NCBI GenBank assembly: GCA_004298675.1
Contig: SCRI01000086.1
Coordinates: 130,456 to 194,455, forward strand
Length of the DNA stretch: 64,000 nucleotides
Direction: 5' to 3'
From: a bacterium
GTDB lineage: Bacteria > Vulcanimicrobiota > Vulcanimicrobiia > Vulcanimicrobiales > SCRA01
Shown here: positions 40,835 to 59,803 of the stretch, piece by piece
Numbering within the stretch: position 1 is the stretch's first letter
Layout: the number at the start of each line of letters is the position of its first letter
The notes under the pieces: model-generated
What the model saw: the letters and a program-made list of their open reading frames with translations, nothing else
What the model was told of the DNA's origin: nothing
Database searches by the model: none
Position numbers and translations under genes: made by a program

Positions 40835-40855
40835 GTTGTCTAATGACTTGACGAC
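40835..40855. promoter_or_regulatory. candidate GntR-type operator, copy 1
   Basis: GTTGTC-taatgactt-GACGAC, 37-57 nt upstream of the rraA-like start. It has the same architecture as the sites at 49507 and 59783. Confidence 0.5.
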
Positions 40856-41256
40856 TTCCTGGTGCCCCTGTATGGCGCGACGTAATGCAAGATCGATGCA
40901 GCACCACTGATGCGCACTTCGATCGGCGGCGATTAGCGGACGTAGCGTTGAAGCGCAGCCCGTCCTGCCATGTGCTACGGTCCTCACGACGACGAGTACA
41001 TCAGTCCTCTTCGGCAGTGTGCCGACATGGTGGCACACCAGCCTACTATGCTGTGCGCGTGATGCGTATTAAGCGGGAACGTGTGCTCGACGTCTACTGC
41101 GAATTCTAAGACGCCTTTGTTGGACGGGGCGTTGCGGGCCTTGCCGGGATACGGGGTGCGGATTGGCGGCGAGTGGCGGCACCGAGATCGCCGCGGTGGC
41201 CCGCTTGTCGTGGCCTATCGTTAGAACGAACGTGTGTTTGATACCGACGCCGCCCA

Positions 41257-41285
41257 TTGATTCTCGAAATATAGACTGATATAAT
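41257..41285 (+). promoter_or_regulatory. sigma-70-type promoter of the cas operon
   Basis: TTGATT (41257-41262), a 17-nt spacer, then consensus TATAAT (41280-41285), in an AT-rich stretch. A GAGGTGA ribosome-binding site lies ahead of the ATG at 41329. Confidence 0.55.
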
Positions 41286-41328
41286 CATTTGGAACATGGT
41301 TATACATTAGGCTGTTCAGAGGTGAAAT

Positions 41329-42546
41329 ATGCTTGATGAACTTCGAAATGCGGTTCAAGAAGCCAACGCCCTCTACTTTGTGACATTGTTGCGAGCGGAT
41401 GACGCTGGCGCTCGGCGTCCGGACGACACGACCGAGCCATCGATTGTCGCCCCGGCGACGTACGCGGCGATCCCTGGGGTCCCTAACAGCGGCGGCCCTC
41501 GCGTCAATCGCGTTCGGACGCACGACCGCGCTGAGGCCCGGACCGTCCTAAGCTCAACCGGTGCTGAAGCCCACCGCCATAAGCTTGCCCTCCGCGATGC
41601 CCTCGCGGAAGACCCGGCACTTCCCTTCCCACGTGTTCACGTCGAAGGCGCGGTCGATCTCAAGGGAAAGGGCAGGCGCCCATGGGCGCTCGACATACTC
41701 GACCTTCCGCACGGCGGCTCTGATACGTATCTGCGGTGGACGAGCGAGTGGAGTGAGTTTGACCCGTTTGTCATGGGGTTCGGCCAGCTCGATCTGCGCG
41801 ACGATGCTACGAGGATCTACCAGCGTTGCATCCACATGCTCCTCGTGGGCGGCTGGGCGTCGTACTATCGCGCTGCGGCTCGGATACCACGCACTCTAAG
41901 CTCTAGCATTGAAGGCATCACGATCCTGCCCAACGATACGGCCGACGACCCTCTCGTCACGTACAAAACGCAACGTAGCGATCCTCTCATCAAGGGCACC
42001 ATCGGTCTCCCTGAGGGAATGAAACCCAAAAAGAAAGACAAAGATAAGCTCAGCGCTGAAGGCCTTGGGGATATTCCGGGTAAGCACCCTACGTCGAAGG
42101 TGCTCATTGACTACGCGGTTGCCAAGACGACGATCAGCTTCGCTGGATTGCGCCAAATCCGCTTCGCTGAAAATGGCGGGCGTTCACACGAACGTGACCT
42201 CGCTGGCCGAACCGTTGCAGCTGCGCTAGGCTTATTGATGCACGAGCTTGTTCAGCGGCACGGCTATTACTTGCGCTCTGGCTGCTCCCTAGTGCCAATC
42301 TTAGGTAAAACGTCTCGAGTACTTGTCGGTGCCGACGGCCGGGAATCTGCATTACCGTGGGATCAGGATGCACGTCCGCGTTTGACCATCGCGAGGGAAC
42401 TCTACGTTGCCGCTGTGCAGGCCGCCGAGGGAACGGGTCTGCAATTCGACCCGGCGCGGACGTTGCATGCGGACCGTAACCTTAACGATGCCGTCTCCCA
42501 TTCTACGCGTTTCGAGCGCGTCGACGAAGATGAGGGGGTCGCATGA
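41329..42546 (+). CDS. cas7: Csb1/Cas7u-like protein (type I-G/I-U backbone subunit candidate)
   Basis: 405 aa. The call rests on position (first gene, immediately upstream of csb2) and loose similarity to the GSU0053 family pattern as I remember it (APATYA near the N-terminus; LRQIRF ... AAALGLL near the C-terminus). It needs an HMM check. Confidence 0.6.
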   Translation: MLDELRNAVQEANALYFVTLLRADDAGARRPDDTTEPSIVAPATYAAIPGVPNSGGPRVNRVRTHDRAEARTVLSSTGAEAHRHKLALRDALAEDPALPFPRVHVEGAVDLKGKGRRPWALDILDLPHGGSDTYLRWTSEWSEFDPFVMGFGQLDLRDDATRIYQRCIHMLLVGGWASYYRAAARIPRTLSSSIEGITILPNDTADDPLVTYKTQRSDPLIKGTIGLPEGMKPKKKDKDKLSAEGLGDIPGKHPTSKVLIDYAVAKTTISFAGLRQIRFAENGGRSHERDLAGRTVAAALGLLMHELVQRHGYYLRSGCSLVPILGKTSRVLVGADGRESALPWDQDARPRLTIARELYVAAVQAAEGTGLQFDPARTLHADRNLNDAVSHSTRFERVDEDEGVA

Positions 42547-43988
42547 CGACGATTGCCGCCCGTTTCCTCTCGAATCGATACGTAGCGCGGCGCTCCGACG
42601 ATCTGGCATCGGCGGAATGGCCCCCTAGCCCCGATCGCCTCTATCAGGCGCTCGTCAATGCGGCCTCACGGCTCGACGTGGAAAGAGGGAAGGCGCGGGC
42701 GTGGCTCGAGTGGCTATCTGGGCAACCGGCGCCGACAATCGTCGCTGTCCCGCAAGTACAGGAGCGCACAAGACACCGACGTTATGACCCCCGTAACGCC
42801 GAGACTCGGCGGCAGGTCGTCGAGCAGGGGCGCAAGCACGTCGTCACCTTGATCGACCAGCGTCAAGATCTGATCGATCTCGTCGATACGCCGCTCGCGC
42901 ACCCCCTCGTCATCTACCACTACGCAGACCGCGTTCCTGACGACCTGATTAGTGTCGCCGATCGCGTTGCCGCGAACGTAGGCTACCTAGGTACGAGCGA
43001 ATCCCCCGTACTGCTACGACTTGCCGAACCCATAGTCGGCACCGATCATCGCACCTTCGTTCCCGATGATGACGGGGACCTGATACTGCCGACGCCGTAT
43101 CCAAATCGCCTTGGTGACCTTGACGCGATGTTCGCTGATGCCTATCGGCCGGACCGCCCAGTCTGGGCACCATCGCTGCGTATCGACGCGCGGCGTACGC
43201 GCTATGCAATCGTCGAGAATCGCAAGTCTAGACCCCGAAGTGGCGATTACGAAGATCTCGTCGCACTTGCGTTCACCGTTGCGCCGAACGTCGATTCCCG
43301 GTTCTTCCCGGCCTTCGTCGCCGCGGTGCGTGCAGCGTACCTTCGCCGGCTTCCCGATGGGGTTCACGGGATGCTCTCAGGTCACGATCATACCGCGCCG
43401 GATCCGAGCTCTACGGCATACCCCGGTGCGCATGCTGCGTTTCTACCGCTTGCCGACGTCAACATGCCGTATGCGAGCTCGCGACTCCGTGGCATCGCCC
43501 TGGCTCTACCGTATGCAATGGGCTATGACCCCCGCCGACAAGCGATAGCCGCCTTCGATATCGATCACATCGTTGTCGCTGGCAGCAAGTACGAGCTGAC
43601 GCCGGTCATCCCTCTCGACCGCGAGTTCGAGGCAACCAGACTCGCACGTTACAGTCGCGTTGGCCGGACCTGGGCGACGCTGACGCCCATTCGTCTCTGG
43701 AAGATGCCCAATCGTAATGGGGGCGATGTTCCGGCGCTAGTCGCGGAGGCCATCCAGCAGACCGGCTACCCGGAACCGCGGTGGATCGAGATTGGTCCTG
43801 CGCCGTATGTGCCCGGCGCGCTCCACGTCACCGCTTACCGTCATCGATTCGAAAAGCCGTACTGGCTCGTTCACGCCCGATTCCAGTTTAGTGAGCCCGT
43901 GCGCGGACCGATGCTCGTTGGGCGAGGACGCTCGGTTGGTTTCGGCTTCTGCGGACTGGTGAACAGCGCAGGGATGCGGGTCGCGTGA
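42543..43988 (+). CDS. csb2: Csb2 (Cas5u-Cas6 fusion, type I-G/I-U)
   Basis: 481 aa. The N-terminal FLSNRYVARRSDDLASAEWPPSPDRLYQALVNAA matches the Csb2 signature (GRYHA ... EWPPxPxRLFxALV) as I remember it. The start forms an ATGA overlap with the upstream gene. Confidence 0.75.
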   Translation: MTTIAARFLSNRYVARRSDDLASAEWPPSPDRLYQALVNAASRLDVERGKARAWLEWLSGQPAPTIVAVPQVQERTRHRRYDPRNAETRRQVVEQGRKHVVTLIDQRQDLIDLVDTPLAHPLVIYHYADRVPDDLISVADRVAANVGYLGTSESPVLLRLAEPIVGTDHRTFVPDDDGDLILPTPYPNRLGDLDAMFADAYRPDRPVWAPSLRIDARRTRYAIVENRKSRPRSGDYEDLVALAFTVAPNVDSRFFPAFVAAVRAAYLRRLPDGVHGMLSGHDHTAPDPSSTAYPGAHAAFLPLADVNMPYASSRLRGIALALPYAMGYDPRRQAIAAFDIDHIVVAGSKYELTPVIPLDREFEATRLARYSRVGRTWATLTPIRLWKMPNRNGGDVPALVAEAIQQTGYPEPRWIEIGPAPYVPGALHVTAYRHRFEKPYWLVHARFQFSEPVRGPMLVGRGRSVGFGFCGLVNSAGMRVA

Positions 43989-46816
43989 GGTTCGAAGACT
44001 TCTTCAGCGCCGTGACCGGGAACACGCCGTTCGACTGGCAGCGTCGGCTTGCCGATCAGGTCACGCAGAACGATCCAGCACGCGTGAGCTGGCCAGACCT
44101 GATCGAGCTTCCTACTTCGGCAGGGAAGACGTCGATCCAACTCATCGCGGCGTATGCGCTCGCGGTGCACCCGAACGCACATCGTCGGATCGTCTACGTT
44201 ATCGACAGGCGTACCGTCGCCGACGATGCCTACGAGACCGCGCATATTCTCCGGGAACGGCTCAGGCGGGGCGATCCTGCCCTGGCCCCGTTTGCCGCTT
44301 CTCTTCGTTACAATGTCGGTCTGAAGTCCACGGAACCCTTGCTTGAGACACATCTCCTCCGCGGAGGTCTCGGAGAGCCGTTGGCGCGATTACGGTCCCC
44401 AATCGCGCCAACGATCCTCGTTGGAACAGTAGATCAGCTCGGGTCGCGACTTTTGTTTCGCGGTTACGGTGTCAGCGAACGCATGCGTCCGGTCGCGGCA
44501 GGACTACTCGCCTACGATACGCTCTGGATCGTCGATGAGGCACATCTTTCCCCGGCCTTCTTGGACACCCTACGTGCCGTGCGTGCATCGGTCTTGGCAT
44601 CTCCACTTCCGCACGATCGTCCACTGCACCTCATTGAGATGACTGCTACCCCGCGCAAGCGCGCCGGGCGAACCGTCTTTGCACTGGGGAGACCCGACGA
44701 TCGCATCGCTCAGAGAATCAGCTGCTCTAAGCCCGCGTTGATTCGTGATCCAATTCAGACAAGAGATCTGGTTGCTGCGTTCGCAGCGCTCGTCGAGGAA
44801 GCGCTGGGATCAAAATCCTTTCGGCGCCTCGGCGTGATCGTGAACCGAGTAGGACTGGCGCGCGAGATTTTCGATGCGCTTCGAAAGGGCGGGTCGAAAG
44901 ATAGCGCAGACTATCTCTTATTCATCGGTCCGATTCGTCCGTACGATCGTAAGTTGCTCTACGAGCGTTCTGCCGCCGTGTCTCTCAAGGCGCAGTCGCA
45001 CGAGCGACGCGCCCACCCGGTAGTCGCCATCTGCACGCAGACGATTGAGGTCGGAGCAGACATCGACTTTGATGCCTTATTCGTCCAAGCGGCACCCCTC
45101 GACGCGCTGCGTCAGCGCTTCGGTCGTCATAATCGGCTTGGCTCGAGCAACGGCACACTTGCGATTATTGTGCCAGAACTGCTCGAAAAAGTGGAGCCCA
45201 TCTACGGAGATGCCACGCAGCGGACGATACGGTGGTTATGTTCGGTCGCCCAGAGGGCGTCATCGGGGCAGAAGGTCGATTTCGGCATAGCCGCCATGGA
45301 CGATGTAGTGGGCCGACTCTCACCGCAAGAGCTTGAGGCGCTGTGCAGTTCGGGACCACTCGGCGAGCCGCTACATGTGCAACACGCGCGAAACCTCGCT
45401 CGCTCCACCAGCCCATGCATCGACGAGCCTGATGTCAGTATCTTCCTTCACGGAGAGCCTGCGCGTGCCGATGTCCAGCTAGTCTGGCGGGAACTCCCCA
45501 AGGACTACGATATCGGTAGGCTCTCGGAAGAGGTCAAGGATGATCTGTCGGCCGCACCACCTTGTGCTGGGGAAATGCTAAGTATCCCGGTCTATGCGGC
45601 GCGTTCCTTCCTTGAGGGTGAGAAGGCGGACGTCGCCGATGTTCCGGCAGAGTTGGAATCCACGCGTCAGGGCCGCAGGCACGGGGTTAAGGCAATCCGG
45701 TGGTCACCGGATAAGGACCAGATTGCCGCTGTTGAGCCTGATCAGATTCGACCCGGAGATACCCTCGTGTTACCCCTAAGTGCCGGGGGCTCCGATGAGT
45801 TCGGCTGGTCCCCTGATCGTATGGACTCTGTTTCAGACCTTTCCTTAGCGGCATACTTCGCGAAAAACGGAGACAGAGTTCGAGCCGCGCGAATGAGAGT
45901 CTTGGTTGCATTTGACCCTGAGGATGGTCGCACGGTCACCGAGCGCGTCGACGATGCTCTCACGAACAAGTGTGAAAGCGGTGACGGCTTGCTCGAGCGA
46001 GAGATCGCACGTGTACTGATGCAAGTGCCCAAGGACCAACGAACGATCCAGCTGATCCAAGCCGCAGGCGGCAACGAACATGCGTGGGTAACCTGGCGCG
46101 AGTCGGTGCGCGACGACGAAGATCCAAACGCCGACGCTAGTTCTTTCACGGTCCGCGTGGGGCTCACCGACCACTTAGAGCACGTTGCCGCCCGCGCACT
46201 CGATCTTGCGCAGCGCTGCGGGTTGCTCAAGGAGCTGTGTGAAAAGCTCTCTCTGGCTGGCCTTCTGCATGACCTCGGCAAGGCCGACGTTCGCTTCCAG
46301 ACGGTACTTCGCGGGGGCGATCTCATCGGTGCGCTTCGAGCCGAAGGCCAGACGGAGAACTTGCTGGCGAAGGGCCTTCGGCGATTTGCGGGAGGGGTCC
46401 AGCGTAGCGTTGCCGTTCCAATGTCTGAACGCTGGTTCCCTGGCATGCGCCACGAAGCGATCTCCGTGGCCATGGCTGGTGTCCAAGACCCGTTGGTCCG
46501 TCACCTCATCGGTAGTCATCACGGCTTTGGACGACCGACGTTCCCGACGATTGAGGATGCGGCGCCGCGTACAGTCCGTGCTCGAATCAACGGAGTCGCA
46601 TACGAAGCTTCGAGCGACCATCATCTCAATGCGAGCGGCTGGGATGAGCAATTTGCCGCGTTGCTCGACGATTACGGAATATGGGGCCTCGCGTATCTAG
46701 AGGCAATCTTACGCCTTGCCGACCATCGATGTTCTAGAGAAGAAGAGAGCGGGTCTGTGTTGGGGCTCCCAGAGCGGGATGGAGGAAACTCGTGCAGCTT
46801 GAGCTCGACGGTCTAG
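43985..46816 (+). CDS. cas3: Cas3 helicase-nuclease, type I-G/I-U architecture (helicase N-terminal, HD C-terminal)
   Basis: 943 aa. It has Walker A LPTSAGKTS, DEAH box IVDEAHL, helicase C region QTIEVGADIDFD and QRFGRHNR, and a C-terminal HD domain (HLEHV ... LLHDLGKADVRFQ ... HEAIS ... GSHHG). GTGA start overlap. Confidence 0.85.
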   Translation: MRFEDFFSAVTGNTPFDWQRRLADQVTQNDPARVSWPDLIELPTSAGKTSIQLIAAYALAVHPNAHRRIVYVIDRRTVADDAYETAHILRERLRRGDPALAPFAASLRYNVGLKSTEPLLETHLLRGGLGEPLARLRSPIAPTILVGTVDQLGSRLLFRGYGVSERMRPVAAGLLAYDTLWIVDEAHLSPAFLDTLRAVRASVLASPLPHDRPLHLIEMTATPRKRAGRTVFALGRPDDRIAQRISCSKPALIRDPIQTRDLVAAFAALVEEALGSKSFRRLGVIVNRVGLAREIFDALRKGGSKDSADYLLFIGPIRPYDRKLLYERSAAVSLKAQSHERRAHPVVAICTQTIEVGADIDFDALFVQAAPLDALRQRFGRHNRLGSSNGTLAIIVPELLEKVEPIYGDATQRTIRWLCSVAQRASSGQKVDFGIAAMDDVVGRLSPQELEALCSSGPLGEPLHVQHARNLARSTSPCIDEPDVSIFLHGEPARADVQLVWRELPKDYDIGRLSEEVKDDLSAAPPCAGEMLSIPVYAARSFLEGEKADVADVPAELESTRQGRRHGVKAIRWSPDKDQIAAVEPDQIRPGDTLVLPLSAGGSDEFGWSPDRMDSVSDLSLAAYFAKNGDRVRAARMRVLVAFDPEDGRTVTERVDDALTNKCESGDGLLEREIARVLMQVPKDQRTIQLIQAAGGNEHAWVTWRESVRDDEDPNADASSFTVRVGLTDHLEHVAARALDLAQRCGLLKELCEKLSLAGLLHDLGKADVRFQTVLRGGDLIGALRAEGQTENLLAKGLRRFAGGVQRSVAVPMSERWFPGMRHEAISVAMAGVQDPLVRHLIGSHHGFGRPTFPTIEDAAPRTVRARINGVAYEASSDHHLNASGWDEQFAALLDDYGIWGLAYLEAILRLADHRCSREEESGSVLGLPERDGGNSCSLSSTV

Positions 46817-47814
46817 ACGGCTCGAATCCTCTTGCATTCCTAGCGGCCCTTGGCGTCCTTGCGACCGTTGGAGGGAGACTCGCGTGGGTGGAGCACGGAG
46901 CGGCCTGGAGGCCGATAATCACCGAGTTGTCAAGCGATATAAGTATGGAGCAACTCGCCGACGTTCTCTATTCGCGGCTCCAGGCGGTTCCGTTCGCCTA
47001 CACACTCGCCCAACCAGGCGAAGCGCCATACGAAGATTTTGCGACGCGAAAGAAGGACCCCGCGACGACGACGGTTCGCCTTGTTGACGGCGAGACGGCC
47101 TTTCGTGCCGCAATCGAACGGGCGGCGATTGAGTGCCAAAATAGCGGCGATTGCGCCGAGCTCGAACGACTCGCGGCCCATACGTGTGTGCTCGGCGTAC
47201 GCAAGGGTAGCACGACGGACGTGCGGTCCGTCTCCGGGCCCGTGCGTTACCTTTCCAATATCCGTGCCATCGTGGAAGCGACGACACGTGAGGACATCGC
47301 ACGCGCGTTGTTCGAGCGTTGGCAGTATTATGCGGGCGAAGTAAAGCGTAAGAAAGAACGAGGTAGGATAAAGGGCCCAGGAAAGCGACCGAAGCTCGGC
47401 CTCGATCCCCGGGCCGTTGTCGAGAATGTTCCCGTTAACATCGCCGGCCTCGGTTCGATCTCCGAACTTGGCGCTGAACGACTCGCGCTCGAGGGATTGC
47501 GCGCCCTTCCCACTAGCATCCACGGTGGGAGGCTTGTTACCCGCGGTTACCATTATAGGCGGGGTAGGGCTTACGCATTTCGCTGGGTGCTCTCGCGAAG
47601 CCCTCGCTCGCTGCGAACGAGCTCGGAGCTTCTGGCGAGCGCGCCATTGGACTTTAGCCCCGATGGCCGAGATCAAGGGCGCGCAGCCCTGTTGTGCTGG
47701 ATGCGAGATCTCGGGGTTGCCGCGTTGTTCGAGTCCCGGCTCCGGTACTATGGGCAAGGGTACAAGCAGTTACTTCCGGCGGTAGCGATAGCGGAAGCGG
47801 GTTCGAGCGCTTAG
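46792..47814 (+). CDS. short Csx17/Cas8u-like protein (large-subunit candidate)
   Basis: 340 aa with a GTG start 25 nt inside the cas3 3' end. The N-terminal LDGLDGSNPLAFLAALGVLATV resembles the Csx17 N-terminal motif (GC..PLASYLKALGVLRL) as I remember it. I recognise nothing in the rest. Confidence 0.5.
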   Translation: MQLELDGLDGSNPLAFLAALGVLATVGGRLAWVEHGAAWRPIITELSSDISMEQLADVLYSRLQAVPFAYTLAQPGEAPYEDFATRKKDPATTTVRLVDGETAFRAAIERAAIECQNSGDCAELERLAAHTCVLGVRKGSTTDVRSVSGPVRYLSNIRAIVEATTREDIARALFERWQYYAGEVKRKKERGRIKGPGKRPKLGLDPRAVVENVPVNIAGLGSISELGAERLALEGLRALPTSIHGGRLVTRGYHYRRGRAYAFRWVLSRSPRSLRTSSELLASAPLDFSPDGRDQGRAALLCWMRDLGVAALFESRLRYYGQGYKQLLPAVAIAEAGSSA

Positions 47815-47981
47815 GTAATGGAGAGTATAACCGGAGGCGCTCGATCCCCGGTTTTGCGCGGAAAATCACTGGGATCCACCGTGAAATGCACCTTGAAAGC
47901 TGAAAAGCAAAGTCGCCAGGGAATACCCGCTCGAAAAATGAGGCTCATTTCGAGACGGCACCAGGCGGTTTAATACCTGCC
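47815..47981 (+). promoter_or_regulatory. CRISPR leader candidate
   Basis: A 167-nt AT-richer non-coding stretch between the csx17-like stop and the first, perfectly conserved repeat. Degenerate repeats lie at the far end of the array. It contains a 7-bp inverted repeat, CTCGAAA-N11-TTTCGAG (47930-47954). Confidence 0.6.
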
Positions 47982-49465
47982 GTTTCCGCGCCCACTAGGG
48001 CGCGGCTCTGTTGAAGGTTGGCGATAGAGATGATCTCGTCGCCGTTCGATTCGGTTTCCGCGCCCACTAGGGCGCGGCTCTGTTGAAGGCAATTGAAAGC
48101 GACGCATTTGGATTCGATGACCTATGTTTCCGCGCCCACTAGGGCGCGGCTCTGTTGAAGGTTATTCGATGGGGCTAACACGACGGAGATCCTTGGGTTT
48201 CCGCGCCCACTAGGGCGCGGCTCTGTTGAAGGTACGAAACTCGCGTCGTTGCACTCGAAACCGTCGAGTTTCCGCGCCCACTAGGGCGCGGCTCTGTTGA
48301 AGGGCGCTCGATTGGCGCGTACGTTCCGTGATTCTCGAGTTTCCGCGCCCACTAGGGCGCGGCTCTGTTGAAGGGATCATCTATGGCTGTGGGCTTCTTG
48401 TCCTCGGCTGAGTTTCCGCGCCCACTAGGGCGCGGCTCTGTTGAAGGCCTGCCCCGATCTTGCGGTCGAAGAAATGGCGGTCGTTTCCGCGCCCACTAGG
48501 GCGCGGCTCTGTTGAAGGCGCTGCTTGCTGCTGGCGTTATAGATAACATGTCGCGTTTCCGCGCCCACTAGGGCGCGGCTCTGTTGAAGGACATAGAGAC
48601 GATTACCGGTGGTTCCGTCAATGCGGTTTCCGCGCCCACTAGGGCGCGGCTCTGTTGAAGGCGGTCCAGATCGAGCGTTTCCCCGATCTTGACCATAATT
48701 TCCGCGCCCACTAGGGCGCGGCTCTGTTGAAGGTGGAAGTGCGGGCGAGTCTGGGTCACGGAAGGAGCAGTTTCCGCGCCCACTAGGGCGCGGCTCTGTT
48801 GAAGGATCCAATCGCGCTGATCCCCGGCCGCGACGAGGTCATGTTTCCGCGCCCACTAGGGCGCGGCTCTGTTGAAGGATCGCGCCCACCGGAACGACGT
48901 CGAGCGGAAAGGTCGTTTCCGCGCCCACTAGGGCGCGGCTCTGTTGAAGGTCGGAGATCCACAGGGCCTTGGTCCGTCCGTGTGCGTTTCCGCGTCCGCT
49001 AGGGCGCGGCTCTGTTGAAGGTTTGGCAGCTGGCGCATCAGCATCCCTGTCGCAACGTGTTTTCGCGCCCACTAGGGCGCGGCTCTGTTGAAGGAGGTGA
49101 TGGCCGAAGTTGAGCGTGCCGCTTCCGGTCGGTTTCCGCGTCCACTAGGGCGCGGCTCTGTTGAAGCGAGGAAGAGTTTCTCGCGCACATCGTTCTGCCG
49201 GACGAGTTTCCGCGTCTACTGGCGCGCGGTTCTGTAGAAGCCCGTACCCGTATACTAACCAATGGCTCACCATCACGTCCTGGTGTTTCCGCGTCTACTG
49301 GGACGCGGCTCTGTTGAAGCCCGGAAGCTCGGTGCGCGTTGTTCTTCAAGGTGATGGTTTCCTTGCCCGCTAGGGCGCGGCTCTGTTGAAGCGCTGTCAC
49401 GTCGGTCGACGCGTTGATGTCGCGGATGCATTTCCGCGTCCGCTGGAGCGCGGCTCTGTTGAAGG
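47982..49465 (+). CRISPR. CRISPR array, 21 repeats / 20 spacers
   Basis: The 36-nt repeat is GTTTCCGCGCCCACTAGGGCGCGGCTCTGTTGAAGG. Copies start at 47982, 48054, 48126, 48197, 48268, 48339, 48412, 48483, 48555, 48626, 48698, 48770, 48843, 48915, 48986, 49059, 49132, 49206, 49285, 49357 and 49430. Spacers are 35-38 nt, with one of 43 nt. Repeats 1-14 are identical except for a G-to-A first base in repeat 11. Repeats 15-21 carry 1-7 substitutions. The internal hairpin is CCGCGCCC-ACTA-GGGCGCGG. Confidence 0.95.
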
Positions 49466-49506
49466 TAGTGGCCGAGCGCCTCCGACTCCCGCTGCGGATG
49501 GCAGGA

Positions 49507-49527
49507 GTTGTCGAGTCATCAGACAAC
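49507..49527. promoter_or_regulatory. candidate GntR-type operator, copy 2
   Basis: A perfect palindrome, GTTGTC-gagtcatca-GACAAC, ending 13 nt before the SDR ATG at 49541. Confidence 0.5.
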
Positions 49528-49540
49528 GTTCCAGCGTGAA

Positions 49541-50303: not shown

Positions 50304-52088
50304 ATGACCGAACAAGCAAAGCGTGGGCTGCGCAGCGCGCAGTGGTGGGACAATCCCGACAATCCCGGGATGACGGCTCTCTATCTCGAGCGCTACCTCA
50401 ACTTCGGTCTCACGCGTGAGGAGCTGCAGTCGGGCAAGCCGATCGTCGGCATCGCTCAGACCGGCAGCGATCTCTCGCCGTGCAACCGCCATCACTTGGA
50501 TCTGGCGCAGCGCGTGCGCGCGGGCATTCGCGACGCCGGCGGCATCCCCATCGAGTTTCCCGTCCATCCCATCCAGGAGACCGGCAAGCGGCCGACGGCG
50601 GCCCTCGATCGCAACCTCGCCTACCTCGGGCTCGTGGAAGTGCTCTACGGCTACCCGCTCGACGGCGTCGTGCTCACCACCGGCTGCGACAAGACCACGC
50701 CGGCCATGCTGATGGGAGCCGCCACAGTCGATCTCCCCGCCATCGTGCTCTCCGGCGGTCCCATGCTCGACGGCTATTTCGAAGGAGAGTTGGTCGGCTC
50801 GGGCACAGTGGTGTGGGAGGCGCGCCGCCGCTATGCCGCAGGCGAGATCGACTATGTCACGTTCATGGAGATGGTCGCGGCCGCGGCGCCGAGCCCGGGT
50901 CATTGCAATACGATGGGCACCGCCAGCTCCATGAACGCGATGGCGGAGGCGCTGGGCATGTCGCTGCCGGGCTGCGCGGCGATCCCCGCGCCCTACCGCG
51001 AGCGCGGCCAGATCGCCTACGCCACGGGCAGACGTATCGTCGAGATGGTGCGCGAAGATCTGCGTCCCTCACGCATCCTCACGCGCGCGGCCTTCGAGAA
51101 CGCGATCGTCTGCGCGTCGGCCATCGGCGCATCCACGAACTGCCCGCCGCACGTCAACGCCATCGCGCGCCACATCGGCGTGGAGCTGAACAACGACGAC
51201 TGGGACCGCATCGGCTACGAGATTCCCTTGCTGGTGAACGTGATGCCGGCCGGCGCCTACCTCGGCGAGGCCTACTACCGCGCCGGTGGCCTGCCGGCAG
51301 TGGTGAGCGAGCTCATGCGCCACGGCAAGATTCGCGCGAGCGCGCTGACGGTGACGGGCAAGACGATCGGTGAGAATCATCGCGAAGCGCGCATCCTGGA
51401 CGAAGACGTCATCCGCCCCTGGGAGCGGCCGCTCAAAGAGAACGCGGGCTTTGCCGTGCTCACGGGTAATCTGTTCGACAGCGCGATCATGAAGACGTCG
51501 GTGATCTCGGATGATTTCCGCGAGCGCTATCTGCGCCGCCCCGGCGACGAGGACGCCTTCGAAGGGCGCGCGATCGTCTTCGAAGGTCCGGAGGACTACC
51601 ATCACCGCATCAACGACCCCGTGCTCGCGATCGACGAGGGGTGTCTGCTGGTGATTCGCGGCAGCGGCCCCATCGGATACCCGGGCTCGGCGGAGGTGGT
51701 CAACATGCTGCCGCCCGACGCGCTCGTGCGGTGCGGCGTCTGCGAGCTGCCCTGCATGGGTGACGGGCGTCAGAGCGGCACGTCGGGGAGCCCCTCCATT
51801 CTCAACGCTTCGCCGGAGTCCGCCGTGGGCGGCGGACTCGCGTTGCTTCAGACCGGCGACCGCATCCGCGTCGACCTCAAGCGCCGCCGCGCCGACATGC
51901 TGGTCCCCGAAGCGGAGTTGGCACGTCGCCAAGCCGAACTCAAGCTACCCGAGCTCGTCAACCAGACGCCGTGGCAAGAGATCTACCGCAACCACGTCGG
52001 TCAACTTGCCGAAGGCGCGGTGTTGGAGAGCGCCGTGAAGTATCAGCGCGTGGCGGAGCGCTTCGGCATCCCGCGCGACAACCACTAG
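50304..52088 (+). CDS. IlvD/Edd family dehydratase (sugar-acid dehydratase type: arabonate/xylonate-like)
   Basis: 594 aa. Motifs: [37 protein letters not shown]. The N-terminus resembles pentonate dehydratases rather than short IlvD. Confidence 0.85.
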
Positions 52089-53615
52089 CTACATCACGGC
52101 GCCGAGCTGCCACGGGACGAACTCGTTATCGCCGTAGTCATACTCCTCGCTGCGTGTGCGCTCGCCTGAGGCCACGGCGAGGATGTGCTCGAAGATGCGG
52201 TGGCCAACTTGCTCGATGCTTTCGTCACCCGTGACGATGCCGCCGCAGTTGAGGTCCATGTCGTCGGACATGCGCTCGTACATGGGCGTGTTGGTGGCCA
52301 GCTTGATGCAGGGCGCGGGCTTGAAGCCCGACGTCGAGCCGCGCCCCGTCGTGAAGCAGATGACGTTGGCTCCACCCGCCACTTGGCCCGTGACCGCAAC
52401 CGGATCGTAGCCCGGCGTATCCATGAAGACGAAACCGTGCTCGGTGATCGGCTCGGCATACTCGTAGACGGCTTGCAGCGGTGTGGTGCCGCTCTTGGCC
52501 ACGGCCCCAAGCGACTTCTCGAGGATCGTGGTGAGTCCGCCGGCTTTGTTGCCGTGCGAGGGGTTGTTGTTCAGCTCCATCTCATGGCGTGAGGTGTACT
52601 CGCGCCACCACGCGATGCGCGCCAACAGTCGTTCGGCCACGGCCGGCGTGGCGGCGCGCCGCGTCAGCAGGTGCTCCGCTCCGTAGATCTCCGGCGTCTC
52701 GCTGAGCACCGCCGTACCGCCGTGGCGCACCAGCAGGTCGGCTGCGTAGCCCAGCGCGGGATTGGCGGAGATGCCGGAGTAGCCGTCGGAGCCGCCACAC
52801 TCCAGCGCGAGCAGCAACGCCGACGCCGGTTGGCGCGAGCGCCGTGCCGCGTTGACTTCATCGAGCATCGAGCCCACGGCCTCGATGGCCGCGTCGATGG
52901 TCTTGCGCGTGCCGCCGAGCCCTTGGATCGTCATGGTGCGCAGCGTGGAGCTCTGCTTGGCGCCGTAGCGCTGCATGAGCAGCGGAATCTGGTTGGTTTC
53001 GCAACCCAAGCCGATCAGCACGGCGCCGCCGACGTTGGGGTGGGTGGCGTAACCCCACATCGTGCGCGTGAGAAAGCGATACGCCTCCCCGTCCAGGCTG
53101 AGCGCGCAGCCGCCGTCATGCGTGAGCGCGACGACGCCGTCGACGTGCTCGTAGTTGCGCAAGCCGCCGCCGCGGTTGAAGTGGTCCGCCACGGCGCGCG
53201 TCACGGTCGCCGAGCAGTTCACGGAGGAGATGAGCGCGACGTAGTTACGCGTACCGACGCGGCCGTCGGCGCGGAGATAGCCTTCGAAGGCGGCGCGCTC
53301 GCCCTCCGGCACGAACGTGGGAGCGGAGGCGTCCACGCACGGCGCGTAGTCCAAGGCGACCTCGCCCATCTCGACGTTGTCGACGTGGACGTGCTCCCCC
53401 GGTTCGATGTCGCGTTGCGCGTAGCCGATGACCTGGCCGTACTTGCGGACCGCCTCACCACGAGCGATCGCGCGCAGCGCGATCTTATGCCCTTGCGGCA
53501 CCGCCGCCTGCGCCACCAGACCCGCGCCGGCGTCGTCGCCGGGTGCCAGGGAGCGGCGTGCGACCGCGACGTTGTCCGAGGGATTGAGCACGATCACGGG
53601 CGACATGACGGTCAT
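52089..53615 (-). CDS. UxaA family hydrolyase (altronate/galactarate dehydratase type)
   Basis: 508 aa. An N-terminal SAF domain (LNPSDNVAVA) is followed by a UxaA C-terminal domain (VALISSVNCSA, LECGGSD, FTTGRGS). Confidence 0.85.
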   Translation of the reverse strand: MTVMSPVIVLNPSDNVAVARRSLAPGDDAGAGLVAQAAVPQGHKIALRAIARGEAVRKYGQVIGYAQRDIEPGEHVHVDNVEMGEVALDYAPCVDASAPTFVPEGERAAFEGYLRADGRVGTRNYVALISSVNCSATVTRAVADHFNRGGGLRNYEHVDGVVALTHDGGCALSLDGEAYRFLTRTMWGYATHPNVGGAVLIGLGCETNQIPLLMQRYGAKQSSTLRTMTIQGLGGTRKTIDAAIEAVGSMLDEVNAARRSRQPASALLLALECGGSDGYSGISANPALGYAADLLVRHGGTAVLSETPEIYGAEHLLTRRAATPAVAERLLARIAWWREYTSRHEMELNNNPSHGNKAGGLTTILEKSLGAVAKSGTTPLQAVYEYAEPITEHGFVFMDTPGYDPVAVTGQVAGGANVICFTTGRGSTSGFKPAPCIKLATNTPMYERMSDDMDLNCGGIVTGDESIEQVGHRIFEHILAVASGERTRSEEYDYGDNEFVPWQLGAVM

Positions 53616-53626
53616 CCTTTCATCGG

Positions 53627-54810
53627 TTACGTGCTGCCGCAGAGGCCGCGCGCGTGCAGGTTGGCGATCAGCGCGCGTACGCCGAAGTTCCAGGGCGCGG
53701 CAACGTCGCAGGTGGTGACGCGGTTGATCAGCGTGCCCAAGTGGGGCGAGGCGATCGTCACCACGTCTCCGAGCTTGTGCGTGAAGCCGGCGCCGTCGCG
53801 CTCCTGCGTGGGCGCGAACATCGTGCCCAGGAAGAGCGCGAAGCCGTCGGGGTATTGGTGGTGGCCGCCGAAGGTGGCGTCGACCAGTTCCAGCACGTCG
53901 CGGCTGATCTGCGCCATCGAGCTGGTGGCATCGAGCAGAAAGCCATCCTCGCCTTCGACGCGCAGCGTGACTTCGGCACTGCGCACCTCGTCGAGACCGA
54001 AGCCGTCGTCGAAGAGACGCACGAAGGGGCCGATCGCAGTGGAGGCGTTGTTGTCCTTGGCCTTACCGAGTAGCAGCGCGCTGCGCCCTTCGAAGTCGCG
54101 CAGGTTGACGTCGTTGCCGAGCGTTGCGCCGACGACGTGGCCCGTACTCGATGCCACGATCACGATCTCGGGCTCGGGATTGTTCCAATTCGAGCGCGGG
54201 TGCACGGCCACGTCGGCACCGAAGCCGATCGCGGAGAGCGGCTGCGCCTTCGTGAACACCTCCGCGTCGGGACCGATGCCGACTTCTAGATATTGCGACC
54301 AGAGACCGCGCTCCACGAGTGCCGCGCGCAGTGCCTGCGCCTGCGGTGATCCGGGCCGGATCTTGGAGAGATCCACACCGACTTGCGCCACCAGCGCGCG
54401 CCGCGCGGCCTCGGCGGCGGCGGGATCGCCTTTGGCGTGCTCTTCGACCACGCGCTCGAGCAGGCTTGCGGCGAACGTGACGCCGGCGGCTTTCACGGCT
54501 TGCAGATCGATCGGCGCGAGCAGCCAGGGCTTAGCGGTGTCGCGGTGACGCGGATCGGAGTTGGCCACGAGCTCCGCCACGCTCCCCAGCCGGTGCTTGC
54601 GCGGTGCCGCCGCCACGCGTCCCGCGGGATCGGCGGCGTCGAAGAGCGCCGACGTAGTCGCGGCGGTAGCACTGATGTCGTAGACGCCCTCGTCGTCAAC
54701 GGTGACGACGGAGGGACCCGGAATCGCTCCGGGCACCCAGGCGCGGCCGACGAATGTGCCCATGTAACCGCCGTTGGGAGCACGATAGCGCGTGGCGATC
54801 TCCAGTGGCG

Positions 54811-54817
<7 letters not shown>
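53627..54817 (-). CDS. fumarylacetoacetate hydrolase family protein (candidate 2-keto-3-deoxy-sugar-acid dehydratase)
   Basis: The FAH-family core is PEPEIVIVASSTGHVVGATLGNDVNLRDFEG ... GKAKDNN. I chose the ATG at 54817, which overlaps the upstream ABC ATPase stop by 7 nt; 54763 is an alternative start. Confidence 0.75.
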
Positions 54818-55905
<1,088 letters not shown>

Positions 55906-55920
55906 GTCTTTGCGGTTCCC

Positions 55921-56775
55921 TCAATCCTTCAGCGCGCCGGCCATGCCGGAGACGTAGTGCTCGACGAAGAAGAAATAGATGATGATGACGGGCAGCGTTC
56001 CCAGCAGTGCCCCCGCCATGAGCTGCCCCCACTGAAAGACGTCGCCGCGGATGAGCTCCGTGGTGAGCCCGACCGTGATCGTCTTGTTCGCGCTCGAGAA
56101 CATGTACACCAGGGCATAGAGATACTCGTTCCACGAGAGCGTGAAGCAGAAGATGGTCGAGGAGATCAGCCCCGGCTTGGCCAGCGGGAGCACGATGCGC
56201 GTCATGATCTGGAAGTGGCTAGCGCCGTCGACGCGTCCCGCCTCCTCCAACTCGCGGGGGAGCGTGCGCAGGAAGCCGCTGAGCAGCCACGTGCAGAACG
56301 GCACGAGGAACGTGGTGTAGATCGGGATCAGCGCCCACAGCTTGTCGAACCAGTGCAGCGCGATCAAGACGTTGGCGAGCGGCAGAAAGAGGATCGCCGG
56401 CGGCACCAGGTAGGCGAAGAAGATGGCGGCGCTCAGCGTCTTCGAGCCCGGGAAGCGCAGACGCACGATGGCGTAGGCGGCCAGGAAGGACACCGCCACG
56501 CTGAGCGCGGTGGCCCCTACCGATACCAGCAGCGTGTTGGCGAACCAGTGCAGGTACTGCGTCCCTGCCACCAGATCCACCACGTGCTTGAAGGTGGGGT
56601 GAAAGATCCACCAGGGATTGGGCGTGGTGAGCAGCTCGTGGTCGGCCTTGAACGTGGTGAGCAGCATCCAGTAGAACGGCACGAACATGAAGACGAAGTA
56701 GCATGTCAGCGGTACGTAGATGCGCAGCCAGGGTTTGCTCGCGCTGCTTGCGCTCATCACGATCCTATTTCTCAC
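55921..56775 (-). CDS. carbohydrate ABC transporter permease
   Basis: 284 aa with six transmembrane helices and an EAA-loop region (LEEAGRVDGASHFQI). Confidence 0.85.
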   Translation of the reverse strand: MRNRIVMSASSASKPWLRIYVPLTCYFVFMFVPFYWMLLTTFKADHELLTTPNPWWIFHPTFKHVVDLVAGTQYLHWFANTLLVSVGATALSVAVSFLAAYAIVRLRFPGSKTLSAAIFFAYLVPPAILFLPLANVLIALHWFDKLWALIPIYTTFLVPFCTWLLSGFLRTLPRELEEAGRVDGASHFQIMTRIVLPLAKPGLISSTIFCFTLSWNEYLYALVYMFSSANKTITVGLTTELIRGDVFQWGQLMAGALLGTLPVIIIYFFFVEHYVSGMAGALKD

Positions 56776-57691
56776 GCATGGCGCGCAGCGCGAAGTATGC
56801 CAGAACGATCATGAAGGGGAGCGTCGAGATGGCGATGGCGGCACCCTGACCGAGGTTGCCGCTAGGGATGGCGCGTTGATAGGCGAGGGTCGTGAAAACT
56901 TGAGTGCCGTTCACCGGGCCGCCCTGGGTCATCGTCCAAATCAATTGGAAGTCGGTGATCGTCCAGATCGACGAGAAGCAGACCAGGATCGTGGTCAGCG
57001 GCGCGAGCAGCGGCCAGATGATATGGCGGAACGAGGCCCAGCCGCCGGCGCCGTCGATGGCCGCCGCTTCCAGCAGCTCCGCGGGAATCGACTGGAGTCC
57101 GGCCATGAAGCCGATGGCGAAGTACGGCACGCCGCGCCAGACGTTGACTACGATCAATGAGACGCGCGCGTTCCACTCCGTGCCGAGAAAGTTGATGGCG
57201 TGGTGGATGAGTCCCAGGCGCTCGAACAGCCAGCTGATGCCGCTGAACTGCGGATCGAGCAGCCACTGCCACGCCAGCACCGCCAGCACCGTCGGTGCCA
57301 CCCATGGCAGCAGCATGAGCGAACGCGCCGCACGGTAGCCGCGGAAGCGTTGGTTGAGCACCATCGCCAGTGCTAAGCCGATGCTCAGCTTGAGCGCCTC
57401 TGAGCCTACCGTGTAGAGGATCGAATAGAACGTGGCCGCGCGATAGGTGGGATCGGCGAAGAGCGCGGTAAAGTTCGCCAGTCCCACGAAATGCCCGGCG
57501 TTGCCGAGCGTCGCGCTCGTCAGTCCGAGCCACACACCGAAGACGAGCGGGTAGGCGACGAGCGCAGCCAAGAGACCCACCGCTGGGGCCGCAAGCAGCG
57601 GCCCCAAGACGGCGGGCGTATCGGCCGCCCTGCGTAGACGCTCGAAGAGCGTGGGGGTTCTTGCCGCCAGCGCGGGGGCGGCCTCAGCCAT
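56765..57691 (-). CDS. sugar ABC transporter permease
   Basis: 308 aa with an EAA loop (LLEAAAIDGAGGWASF). Confidence 0.85.
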   Translation of the reverse strand: MAEAAPALAARTPTLFERLRRAADTPAVLGPLLAAPAVGLLAALVAYPLVFGVWLGLTSATLGNAGHFVGLANFTALFADPTYRAATFYSILYTVGSEALKLSIGLALAMVLNQRFRGYRAARSLMLLPWVAPTVLAVLAWQWLLDPQFSGISWLFERLGLIHHAINFLGTEWNARVSLIVVNVWRGVPYFAIGFMAGLQSIPAELLEAAAIDGAGGWASFRHIIWPLLAPLTTILVCFSSIWTITDFQLIWTMTQGGPVNGTQVFTTLAYQRAIPSGNLGQGAAIAISTLPFMIVLAYFALRAMREK

Positions 57692-59000
57692 AGATGGCTT
57701 TCAGCCGGTTCTCGGCGCGTTGGATGGCTTGTTTTGGCGGCATGTCGTTGACGCAGGCGTCGGCAAACATGTCGACCACGATGAAGTCGTTCAACGCGGT
57801 CGCCGCCTCTTTGCCGGGAGCCCCCGCGAAACCGTCGGAGAGTTCGCCGACCATGGCGTCGCGATAGGGCGTGACGTTGGGATTGCTTGTCCACACCGGC
57901 AGACTGCGGTAGCCGCGCGCGGCCGGCGTCACGTAGCCGTTCATCGCCGTCACCCACGCGTCGGCCTGCTTGCGCTCGAGCATGAAGCGCAGATATTCCT
58001 TGGCTGCCTTCGGGTAGCTCGAGTACTTGAAGATGAAGGCTTGCGTGAAGAGGTTGAAGGGCGTGGGGCGATTGACCGGTCCCATCGGGATCGGTGCGTT
58101 GATCGTGTCGGCAAAGATCTGCGGGAAGCTCTCCTTGGCTACCACCCAGATGCTGATACCGTTGATGGTCCACGAGATGTCGCCGGCGAGGAAGGCTTTG
58201 TTGTTGGAGGGATCGAGCCACGACGAGACACCCGGGATCATCGTCTCGTACAGCTCCTTGGCGTACTCCAAAGCGTGGACCGTCTGCGGCGAGTTGATCG
58301 CGACGGAGCCGTCCGGGTTGACCTGTTTGCCGCCGAAGCCCCAGAGGAGCGAGTGGGCCCAGGTATTGGCGTCACCGACGGCGTGCCCCAAGGCTAGACC
58401 GCAGGGATGGCCGTTCTTTTTCAAGGCTTTGGAGAGTTTCAGGAGACCGCCGAGGTTCTTGGGGAACTCGTGGAAGCCGGCTTGCTCCACCCAACTCTTC
58501 CGGTACACTGCCGCGGCGCCCGCCACGCCGATGGGAACGGCGATCCAACGCCGCTCCTTCGTGTCGTAGCCGTACTCACGTGAGACGGGATACCAGCCGC
58601 CGCCGTCGTGGCCCAGGTAGTTGGCGAGATCCGAGACGTCGACCAGTTTGTCGGGATAGATGAAGGGCGCGTCGTACCAGCCCATCACGATGTCGGGCCC
58701 CGAGTTGACCTGCGCCGAGAGCGCGGCCTTGGGTGAGACGTCCGTCCAGGAGAGGTACTGCACCTCGACCGGAATGCCGGTGAGCTTGGTGAAGAGCTGC
58801 GTATTCGCGTTCCACGCGGCCTCGTCGCTCTTGACGAAGCCGCTCCAGCGCAGGAGTTGGAGCTTGGCGCCGCTCTCGGGCGTAAACATCGGTGTGTAGG
58901 CGGCGGCCTGCGCGCCGGCCGTGTCGAGCAGGACGCCGGCGGCCGTCGCGGCGACGGCACCGGTGCCTACGAGGAACTCACGTCGATCGAGCGATCTCAT
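57684..59000 (-). CDS. ABC transporter extracellular solute-binding protein (family 1, sugar type), Tat signal
   Basis: 438 aa with the N-terminus MRSLDRREFLVGTGAVAATAAG. Confidence 0.85.
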   Translation of the reverse strand: MRSLDRREFLVGTGAVAATAAGVLLDTAGAQAAAYTPMFTPESGAKLQLLRWSGFVKSDEAAWNANTQLFTKLTGIPVEVQYLSWTDVSPKAALSAQVNSGPDIVMGWYDAPFIYPDKLVDVSDLANYLGHDGGGWYPVSREYGYDTKERRWIAVPIGVAGAAAVYRKSWVEQAGFHEFPKNLGGLLKLSKALKKNGHPCGLALGHAVGDANTWAHSLLWGFGGKQVNPDGSVAINSPQTVHALEYAKELYETMIPGVSSWLDPSNNKAFLAGDISWTINGISIWVVAKESFPQIFADTINAPIPMGPVNRPTPFNLFTQAFIFKYSSYPKAAKEYLRFMLERKQADAWVTAMNGYVTPAARGYRSLPVWTSNPNVTPYRDAMVGELSDGFAGAPGKEAATALNDFIVVDMFADACVNDMPPKQAIQRAENRLKAIYG

Positions 59001-59060
59001 ATCCGAGTTGCCTCCTTGTCGTCAAGCGAAGATGTATTCGGGTACGGGAAGCTGCGTCTC

Positions 59061-59774
59061 TTATAAGTTCAAGAGTGCCTTGACGTCACGTTCCGTTCCC
59101 GCGAGGTGTTTGCGCATGGCCGTGCGCGCGGCGGCGCCGTCACCGCGCTTCACGGCGCGAAAGATCGCGACGTGATCGCGCAGTGCCCGCTTGAGCACGC
59201 CGGGCAGCGAACTGGTGGTCTGCTGGCTGAAGGTCAAGAGCTCGCGCATCGAGTCACCCATCTTGATCAGCGCGCGATTGCGTGTGGCCTGCAAGAGCGC
59301 GCGATGGAAGACGGCGTCGGCATGACTGAAGGCGACGTGATCCTCTACCGTGCCCTGCATCAGCCGGACCGCCGACTGCATGGCCTGGAGGTCGTCTTCC
59401 TCCGCGCGTTCGGCCGCTAGCGCAGCGACTTCGCACTCGAAGATGCGGCGCGCCTCCATGAGGTCCTGCAGCACGGAGACCATGGTGCCGCGCTCGCGCC
59501 GGGCCGCCAGGATGTCGACGTCGAGCGGATCCCAGGACTCGGGCTCCGTGATACGGGTGCCGGCACCGTGCCGGATCTCTACGAGGCCTTTCTCCGAGAG
59601 CACGCGCAGGGCTTCGCGAACGACGGCACGTGAGGCGCCGAACTGCATCGCCATCTCCGGCTCGGAGGGGAGAAACGTGCCGGGCTCAAGCTCGCCCGAG
59701 ACGATGCGCCCCACGATCGCTTCCACGATCTGAACGTGCAGACGCTTCGCCTCGACAGGCTTGTAGCGTGTCAT
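59061..59774 (-). CDS. GntR family transcriptional regulator (FadR/FCD subfamily)
   Basis: The ATG at 59774. It has a winged helix-turn-helix (LPSEPEMAMQFGASRAVVREALRVLSEKGLVEIRHGAGTRI) and an all-helical FCD-like C-terminal domain. Confidence 0.85.
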   Translation of the reverse strand: MTRYKPVEAKRLHVQIVEAIVGRIVSGELEPGTFLPSEPEMAMQFGASRAVVREALRVLSEKGLVEIRHGAGTRITEPESWDPLDVDILAARRERGTMVSVLQDLMEARRIFECEVAALAAERAEEDDLQAMQSAVRLMQGTVEDHVAFSHADAVFHRALLQATRNRALIKMGDSMRELLTFSQQTTSSLPGVLKRALRDHVAIFRAVKRGDGAAARTAMRKHLAGTERDVKALLNL

Positions 59775-59782
59775 GTGGTATA

Positions 59783-59803
59783 GTTGTCTAGTGAGTCTAC
59801 AAC
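59783..59803. promoter_or_regulatory. candidate GntR-type operator, copy 3 (divergent gntR/aldolase intergenic region)
   Basis: GTTGTC-tagtgagtc-TACAAC, in the ~50-nt gap between the gntR start (59774) and the aldolase start. Confidence 0.5.

Follow-up and report, generated by a model that had tools for sequence, protein, structure and literature searches.

Three copies of a nested palindrome as putative operators of a FadR-type sugar-acid regulon on both sides of a type I-G CRISPR-Cas block

Three copies of a palindrome of the form GTTGTC-N9-GACAAC lie within a 64,000-nucleotide stretch of contig SCRI01000086.1 (hereafter the window), which belongs to an uncultured bacterium, and a type I-G CRISPR-Cas block sits between two of them. 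This arrangement raises the question of whether the copies are operators read by a single regulator, which genes they would bring under common control, and whether a regulon was split when the CRISPR-Cas block arrived. We consider the best explanation, with a probability of roughly 0.78, to be that the three sites are operators of a FadR-subfamily GntR regulator encoded at 59061-59774 and would tie together four gene units, with the CRISPR-Cas block as a foreign passenger.

The original prediction, made from the letters of the window, had placed the three copies at 40835-40855 (site 1, GTTGTCtaatgacttGACGAC), 49507-49527 (site 2, GTTGTCgagtcatcaGACAAC) and 59783-59803 (site 3, GTTGTCtagtgagtcTACAAC). 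We recovered all three with exactly these coordinates and sequences, and the common features it had pointed out, an A just before the site and A/T/A at positions 2, 4 and 6 of the spacer, hold at every site. With one mismatch allowed, the window contains 3 matches to GTTGTC-N9-GACAAC where 0.10 are expected, and none of 100 dinucleotide-preserving shuffles gave three. For comparison we used 1.5 Mb of control sequence, comprising 80 unrelated high-GC loci that had been fetched for another purpose by a scan of GTDB genomes with the IlvD protein of the window; none of these loci is syntenic with the window, and the motif occurs once across them. A chance origin of the three copies is thereby excluded. 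Outside the motif the flanks of the three sites are unrelated to one another. Each site falls in a promoter-proximal gap, as had been predicted: site 1 is 36 nt upstream of the ATG (40798, minus strand) of an RraA-like gene, site 2 is 13 nt upstream of the ATG (49541) of an SDR gene, and site 3 occupies the 51-nt gap between the divergent gntR (ATG 59774, minus) and HpcH (GTG 59826) genes, 8 nt upstream of the former start and 22 nt from the latter. The 13-nt and ∼50-nt distances of the original prediction are thus both borne out. Sites 1 and 2 are separated by 8651 nt.

The association of the element with the regulator was examined by footprinting upstream of gntR orthologues, using the four closest loci (L081-L084) and 80 metagenomic loci with an orthologue alignment. 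We counted loci that encode a GntR orthologue of at least 42% identity (42-75%) and have enough upstream sequence, and took as a site any match with 13 bits or more no farther than 100 nt from the start of gntR. One site upstream of gntR was found in 38 of the 43 such loci, which come from metagenomes and metagenome-assembled genomes (MAGs). These sites lie 7-14 nt from the gntR ATG, all of those directly upstream of a mapped gntR are oriented toward it, and conservation of the element extends to regulators with as little as 45% identity. Site 3 of the window matches them in both position and orientation. The gene divergent from gntR varies by clade while the element stays: most loci have a UxaA/GarD dehydratase there, L081-L084 have HpcH, and L110 and L120 an IlvD-like gene. 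This indicates that the element follows the regulator and not the neighbour.

We then scanned both strands of the window with a weight matrix for which only sites from other loci were used, with the L081/L084 type also left out. Site 2 (28.8 bits), site 1 (26.2 bits) and site 3 (17.8 bits) take ranks 1 to 3 among 128,000 positions, and each scores best when it faces its downstream gene. The next scores in the window are 12-13 bits. We rejected the weaker matches at 9713 and 9139, which lie inside a long open reading frame (ORF; 8150-9847) with a KMSKS-type aminoacyl-tRNA synthetase motif, and a match at 53571, which lies within the coding sequence for the dehydratase N-terminus. The highest score in the 1.5-Mb control is 18.7 bits and none reaches 20, so sites 1 and 2 stand far beyond background.

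The three sites align far better when read toward the downstream gene, that is, with sites 1 and 3 as reverse complements. In this gene-facing frame they share AGGA(N)-GTyGTm-rAsTCAyyA-GACAAC, and the nine "spacer" bases therefore belong to the motif as an operator core. The consensus of the orthologue loci is TAGGA-aTyGTC-rGGTsAyCg-GACAAc-TCCT, in which T2, G4, T5, T10, A12, A17, C18, A19 and A20 are the most informative positions, GT/AC pairs stand at positions 4-5/17-18 and 9-10/12-13, and the AGGA/TCCT arms stretch the symmetry to about 29 bp. The element is thus a nested palindrome, AGGA-TyGTC-rGT(s)AyC-GACAA, with a GT-N-AC core of the FadR type. The earlier description of a hexamer-N9-hexamer was incomplete, since the centre holds a conserved GT-N-AY core and the AGGA/TCCT arms were missed. 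Operators of the FadR subfamily are GT/AC palindromes with a usual GT-AC distance of 3 nt, and many have further half-site boxes at 7-12 nt from the centre (PMC4494728). The nested element, a GT/AC palindrome with additional half-site boxes near promoters, fits this description, although its inner GT-AC distance of 1 nt is atypical. In L098, L111 and L114 a TAGGA is retained 5' of the palindrome, within the 100 nt upstream of gntR, despite unrecognisable palindrome arms; TAGGA may serve the promoter, as a -10-like element, and not belong to the operator. A literature search pairing the hexamers with GntR returned unrelated papers only.

The regulator itself has the build expected for such an operator family. 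Its N-terminus is a GntR winged helix-turn-helix (PF00392, residues 14-75, E=1.8e-19), its C-terminus an all-helical FCD effector domain (PF07729, residues 104-225, E=1.1e-27), and the closest solved structure is that of E. coli DgoR (7C7E, E=6e-28). Of the predicted metal/ligand residues (D153, H157, H201, H223 and R109), the three histidines never vary among 24 aligned orthologues, and D153 and R109 hardly do; H223 is the third histidine that completes the classical FCD metal site. Conservation of these residues supports a carboxylate as effector. Recognition-helix residues are also invariant across the aligned orthologues. An identical protein occurs in an unclassified bacterial MAG, the next relatives (75% identical) are likewise from unclassified MAGs, and among the many further relatives at 52-59% identity several are named Eremiobacterota (Elarobacter, Velthaea).

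Four units, about 14 genes in all, would make up the regulon (Table 1). Unit 1 would comprise gntR and, behind it, a sugar ABC transporter, a FAH-family protein and a UxaA/GarD dehydratase; in this co-directional row (52089..59000) the genes overlap or lie at most 15 nt apart, save for a 60-nt gap after gntR. Unit 2 would be the divergent HpcH aldolase, unit 3 the SDR and IlvD/EDD dehydratase, and unit 4 the RraA-like, Ldh_2, Peripla_BP_6 (PBP6) and second SDR genes. The IlvD/EDD gene (plus strand, stop ending at 52088) and the UxaA/GarD gene (minus strand, stop ending at 52089) converge with zero spacer and no room for a terminator.

Table 1. Coordinates of the predicted operators, genes and CRISPR-Cas features in the window
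Feature	Coordinates	Strand	Basis or remark
Operator O1 (site 1)	40835..40860	-	AGGAA-GTCGTCAAGTCATTAGACAAC read toward RraA-like gene; 26-28 bits, rank 2 in window
Operator O2 (site 2)	49503..49527	+	AGGA-GTTGTCGAGTCATCAGACAAC; 29-30 bits, rank 1 in window
Operator O3 (site 3)	59783..59808	-	AGGAT-GTTGTAGACTCACTAGACAAC read toward gntR; 18 bits, rank 3 in window
FadR-subfamily GntR regulator, 237 aa	59061..59774	-	PF00392 + PF07729
CUT1-type sugar-binding protein	57684-59000	-	Pfam, NCBIfam, start codons
Permease	56765-57691	-	Pfam, NCBIfam, start codons
Permease	55921-56775	-	Pfam, NCBIfam, start codons
MalK-like ATPase	54811-55905	-	Pfam, NCBIfam, start codons
FAH-family protein	53627 to about 54817	-	Pfam, NCBIfam, start codons
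UxaA/GarD-type dehydratase	52089-53615	-	Pfam, NCBIfam, start codons
HpcH/HpaI-family aldolase	59826..60632	+	PF03328; divergent from gntR
SDR	49541-50302	+	Pfam, NCBIfam
IlvD/EDD-type sugar-acid dehydratase	50304-52088	+	Pfam, NCBIfam
RraA-like aldolase	40091-40798	-	First gene of four-gene operon 36973..40798
Ldh_2 oxidoreductase	38998-40104	-	Four-gene operon 36973..40798
Peripla_BP_6 binding protein	37739-39001	-	Four-gene operon 36973..40798
SDR	36973-37737	-	Four-gene operon 36973..40798
Type I-G cas operon	41257..47814	+	Own sigma-70-like promoter 41257-41285
Csb1-like	41329-42546	+	Type I-G cas operon
Csb2	42543-43988	+	Type I-G cas operon
Cas3g	43985-46816	+	Type I-G cas operon
Cas3-extension protein	46792-47814	+	Type I-G cas operon
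CRISPR array	47982..49465	+	21 repeats of 36 nt, 20 spacers

The same gene families recur around the orthologous regulators. In L081-L083 an HpcH gene is divergent from a gntR-rraA-ldh2-PBP6 cluster that forms one operon, with protein identities to the window of 75-90%; the HpcH protein of the window is 79% identical to the product of the gene divergent from gntR in L081-L084. At the common Eremiobacterota-type locus, a row of ATPases, permeases, Peripla_BP_6 and UxaA/GarD genes is divergent from gntR, and an epimerase, SDR, IlvD and then an RraA-like gene follow 2-6 kb downstream. UxaA/GarD, PBP6, SDR, IlvD and RraA-like genes surround gntR in L088-L109, where the SDR and IlvD homologues lie 2-4 kb from it, and L103 and L109 carry close homologues (61-70%) of the CUT1 transporter of the window. 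This co-localisation supports placing all four units under the regulator. The original prediction that the GntR protein controls these units as one sugar-acid regulon is well supported by our comparisons, namely the footprinting (38/43), the matrix ranks (1-3) and the gntR-rraA-ldh2-PBP6 operon of the relatives. Clusters in which UxaA/GarD, FAH, SDR and IlvD/EDD proteins accompany an ABC transporter perform non-phosphorylative sugar catabolism (PMC6336799), and the resemblance of the enzyme set to such sugar and sugar-acid routes makes the term "sugar-acid regulon" a reasonable one.

How might the operators act? Each combines a central GT-N-AY core with outer TyGTC/GACAA boxes and an AGGA arm in a nested palindrome of 21-29 bp; it lies 8-36 nt from the start codon and would be situated at or just downstream of the core promoter. 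Once bound as one dimer, or perhaps as two, the repressor would prevent initiation, and a carboxylate effector, probably a pathway sugar acid or a 2-keto-3-deoxy acid held in the metal-containing FCD pocket, would free it. In the orthologue loci the palindrome nearly fills the 55-60 nt gap between the divergent starts, and Shine-Dalgarno sequences are absent. The distances of 8, 13, 22 and 36 nt from the starts in the window, the lack of a sigma-70 consensus at the sites and this filled gap together suggest that the operator overlaps the core promoter, or else the 5' end of transcripts that are very short or lack a leader, so that steric repression is the likely mode of action. DNA binding, repression and effector class are what we infer from these features. 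Divergent starts can be very close in the orthologue loci, at 11 nt for SDR/IlvD (L089, 13612-13630) and about 55-60 nt for dehydratase/gntR (L087-L116, ∼9950). Such close starts without Shine-Dalgarno sequences suggest leaderless or very short-leader mRNAs in this lineage.

Several observations weigh against the regulon as proposed. The score of site 3 is borderline, since 17.8 bits is reached by 2 control matches in the 1.5 Mb, yet the site occupies exactly the orthologous position. Each orthologue locus has a single site, never in front of SDR/IlvD or rraA. A layout with three operators is therefore confined to the lineage of the window, and the membership of units 3 and 4 depends on the window's own sites and the gene co-localisation. 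A sigma-70 consensus promoter was found at none of the three sites. The gene set of the window matches no characterised pathway. Finally, the motif scan of host DNA covered 64 kb of the genome, the length of the window.

These considerations lead to the question of what else the element could be. A shared promoter element, or the site of another, unlinked transcription factor, would account for the retention of the AGGA/TAGGA arm where the palindrome arms diverged, in that the conserved block may be partly promoter, and for sites lying 7-14 nt from start codons without Shine-Dalgarno sequences. We nevertheless consider this improbable, because the palindrome travels with gntR across clades with differing neighbours at one copy per locus, because its GT/AC dyad symmetry is typical of the family (PMC4494728), and because 1.5 Mb of other loci, IlvD operons included, holds no match of at least 20 bits. 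Action at the RNA level, through hairpins that attenuate, terminate or stabilise transcripts, has very little to recommend it: while every site can form a short hairpin, and the fold of site 1 with its surroundings does slightly better than shuffled sequences (z = -2.2), three further folds do not beat shuffles (z = -1.3, +1.6, +0.9), the sites are not followed by T runs, a search for terminator-like sites came back empty, Rfam gives no match, and arm changes in the orthologues are not compensatory (ATCGTC paired with GACAAC). Hardest to credit is the view that the three copies are coincidence or functionless, neutral remnants of duplicated DNA. One copy or more may have arisen by duplication, since the region of site 1 resembles the L081/L084 gntR promoter beyond the palindrome (83% over 48 nt), but chance is excluded by the shuffles and the 1.5-Mb control, the flanks of the window sites are otherwise unrelated, and conservation down to 45% regulator identity is not expected of neutral DNA. 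Operators of the GntR regulator therefore remain our preferred reading of the three sites.

We next consider the CRISPR-Cas block, which we take to be a passenger in a rearrangement-prone locus that would stand outside the regulon, between units 3 and 4. Its cas genes are compositionally foreign: the GC content at third codon positions is 0.64-0.67 in the four cas genes and 0.81-0.92 in all 14 metabolic genes on both sides, and overall GC falls to 0.60 across 40.5-49 kb compared with 0.65-0.69. Proteins expected of type I-G are present, namely Cas3g with a C-terminal HD domain (TIGR02621, 681 bits, cut-off 400), Csb2 (Cas5-Cas6; TIGR02165, 195 bits, cut-off 45) and Csb1 (Cas7; PF09617, 37.9 bits, cut-off 25). 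We found no Csx17/Cas8g, cas1, cas2 or cas4 beside the block, as 41329-47814 contains four ORFs only and none belongs to these families. No Cas3 homologue closer than 54% identity turned up, and the island could therefore not be traced to a source. In the array the 14 leader-side repeats are identical and the last seven degenerate, which places the leader on the cas side and directs transcription toward site 2; the final repeat stops at 49465 and leaves 41 nt to site 2, the distance given by the original prediction. We rejected the possibility of a self-targeting spacer, as the 20/24 similarity of spacer 1 to csb2 is attributable to chance and, with only short matches, no spacer matches the window. 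Between site 1 and the AT-rich cas promoter lie ∼365 nt of GC-rich DNA (40856-41220) with no recognisable gene, Rfam match or similarity to relatives, and a blastx comparison with the proteins of the window revealed no pseudogene remnant in 40856-41328. This GC-rich DNA may be either old intergenic sequence from before the island or the island's own edge.

Was the regulon split by the insertion of this 8.6-kb island, as had been proposed? The proposal is plausible only in the weak sense that two operator-bearing promoters do have a foreign cas block between them, and the proposed check, whether the two operons are neighbours in related genomes, gave it no support: no relative has rraA beside SDR-IlvD, and the nearest ones (75% GntR identity) are arranged differently. 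There, 37718-40802 of the window (rraA-ldh2-PBP6) finds its counterpart, at 79% DNA identity, in L081 10714-13834, directly after gntR, and in L081-L083 the rraA start overlaps or abuts the gntR stop. The surroundings of site 1 (40827-40874, 48 nt) are 83% identical to the promoter/operator region upstream of gntR in L081 and also resemble that of L084. In the window gntR and rraA are about 18 kb apart, separated by the transporter-FAH-dehydratase row, the convergent SDR-IlvD unit, the array and the cas genes. Since relatives place rraA by gntR and not by SDR-IlvD, the island is one component of a rearranged stretch of ∼18 kb. Unit 4, fused to gntR in the nearest relatives, is separate in the window and has a copy of the gntR-type promoter and operator to itself. 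In this lineage the locus is unstable, for in L084 rraA and most of ldh2 are lost and a 97-nt ldh2 remnant (11019-11115), 87% identical to 39665-39761 of the window, stands right after gntR. The IlvD protein of the window is 81-85% identical to Rhodospirillales/Ferrovibrionaceae proteins (L001-L004) and only about 46% identical to the IlvD proteins beside gntR orthologues in L088-L109, which suggests that the SDR-IlvD unit may be a later, possibly horizontal, recruit. The direction of all these rearrangements is what we infer from the comparison with relatives.

A clean insertion of the island into a divergent intergenic region that once joined the rraA and SDR-IlvD operons, each with its own operator, is possible but on balance doubtful. 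It would agree with the foreign composition of the cas genes, with operators that face outward on both sides of the block, and with the existence of FadR-family divergent pairs that have two separate sites (PMC4494728). It sits poorly with the gene order of the relatives, where rraA is never beside SDR-IlvD and directly follows gntR in L081-L083 and IlvD in L088-L109, and with the IlvD affinities, which hint that SDR-IlvD itself arrived later. Nor did we find the traces that insertion might leave: there is no target-site duplication, no family of flanking direct repeats in 40800-49600, and no integrase or transposase among the ORFs flanking or inside the block. Exact-protein look-ups with the GntR, SDR and RraA-like proteins of the window returned no other contig and no island-free strain variant. 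On this evidence the juxtaposition with CRISPR is most likely incidental, and a passenger block within a rearranged regulon is the reading we retain.

The position of site 2 invites one further, decidedly speculative proposal, which we regard as improbable. With the operator 41 nt past the CRISPR trailer and no terminator between, site 2 could act as a regulated roadblock that, in the repressed state, stops pre-crRNA read-through, while upon induction transcription of the array would run into SDR-IlvD and couple the two; together with this, or instead of it, two dimers or a tetramer could bind the 29-bp nested palindrome on leaderless promoters. If true, the latter mode of binding would be undescribed for FadR-subfamily sugar-acid regulators.

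Our analysis yields a predicted operator and regulon that can be put to the test, for a FadR-type regulator from a little-studied uncultured lineage that comprises Eremiobacterota relatives and unclassified MAGs. In it RraA-like, Ldh_2 and HpcH proteins are linked to UxaA/GarD, IlvD/EDD, SDR and FAH sugar-acid enzymes, which may help pathway assignment. It also suggests that a regulon can outlast the break-up of an operon, as the detached rraA operon keeps its own operator copy. The points of interest are the nested operator geometry very near start codons and the operator duplication alongside operon break-up.

When compared with known systems, the locus is a new, uncharacterised example of the well-known FadR-type local sugar-acid regulons and no new kind of system. 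The CRISPR-Cas block shares Cas3g, Csb2, a Csb1-like protein, the Cas3-extension protein and an array of 36-nt repeats with type I-G (formerly I-U) and differs in having no adjacent cas1, cas2, cas4 or Csx17/Cas8g. The non-phosphorylative routes for pentoses and deoxyhexoses (Watanabe et al. 2019, PMC6336799) similarly cluster a UxaA/GarD-type acid-sugar dehydratase, IlvD/EDD, an SDR 4-dehydrogenase, a FAH-family enzyme, an ABC transporter and a regulator; the window has, in addition, RraA-like, Ldh_2, HpcH and Peripla_BP_6, which those routes lack, and no sugar 1-dehydrogenase or lactonase was identified in it. The local regulons of the FadR subfamily reconstructed by comparative genomics (Suvorova et al. 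2015, PMC4494728; RegPrecise) share with the window a GT/AC palindrome in the divergent gap by the regulator, additional half-site boxes 7-12 nt from the centre, and transport and catabolic gene content. The window differs from them in a GT-AC distance of 1 nt where 3 is typical, in sites 7-14 nt from the starts, and in its uncultured lineage akin to Eremiobacterota MAGs, which is not among the taxa listed in the part of that study consulted. The closest individual parallel is DgoR, the GntR/FadR-type D-galactonate repressor of E. coli (PDB 7C7E). We rejected the assignment of the window protein as a DgoR orthologue, as the two are distantly similar and the protein falls below every NCBIfam equivalog cut-off (the top model, for the NanR subfamily, gives 125 bits where 260 are required), and that of the genes as a D-galactonate regulon, as Pfam scans of the neighbours found no dgoK, dgoA, dgoD or dgoT enzyme families. 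The DgoR operator is TTGTAGTACAA (GT-N3-AC), which forms two adjacent inverted repeats (PMC11705089), whereas the window sites, GTyGTm-N9-GACAAC with a GT-N1-AY centre, do not follow the DgoR-type TTGTAnTACAA but form one nested palindrome whose outer TyGTC/GACAA boxes are 11 nt apart. The palindromic operators of DgoR overlap the promoter (PMC11705089). The two proteins have the same two-domain build, and D146, H150, H195 and R102 of DgoR align with D153, H157, H201 and R109 of the window GntR, which differs in having the third histidine, H223, as in classical FCD metal sites. In both systems the sugar-acid operon begins with the gene of its own regulator.

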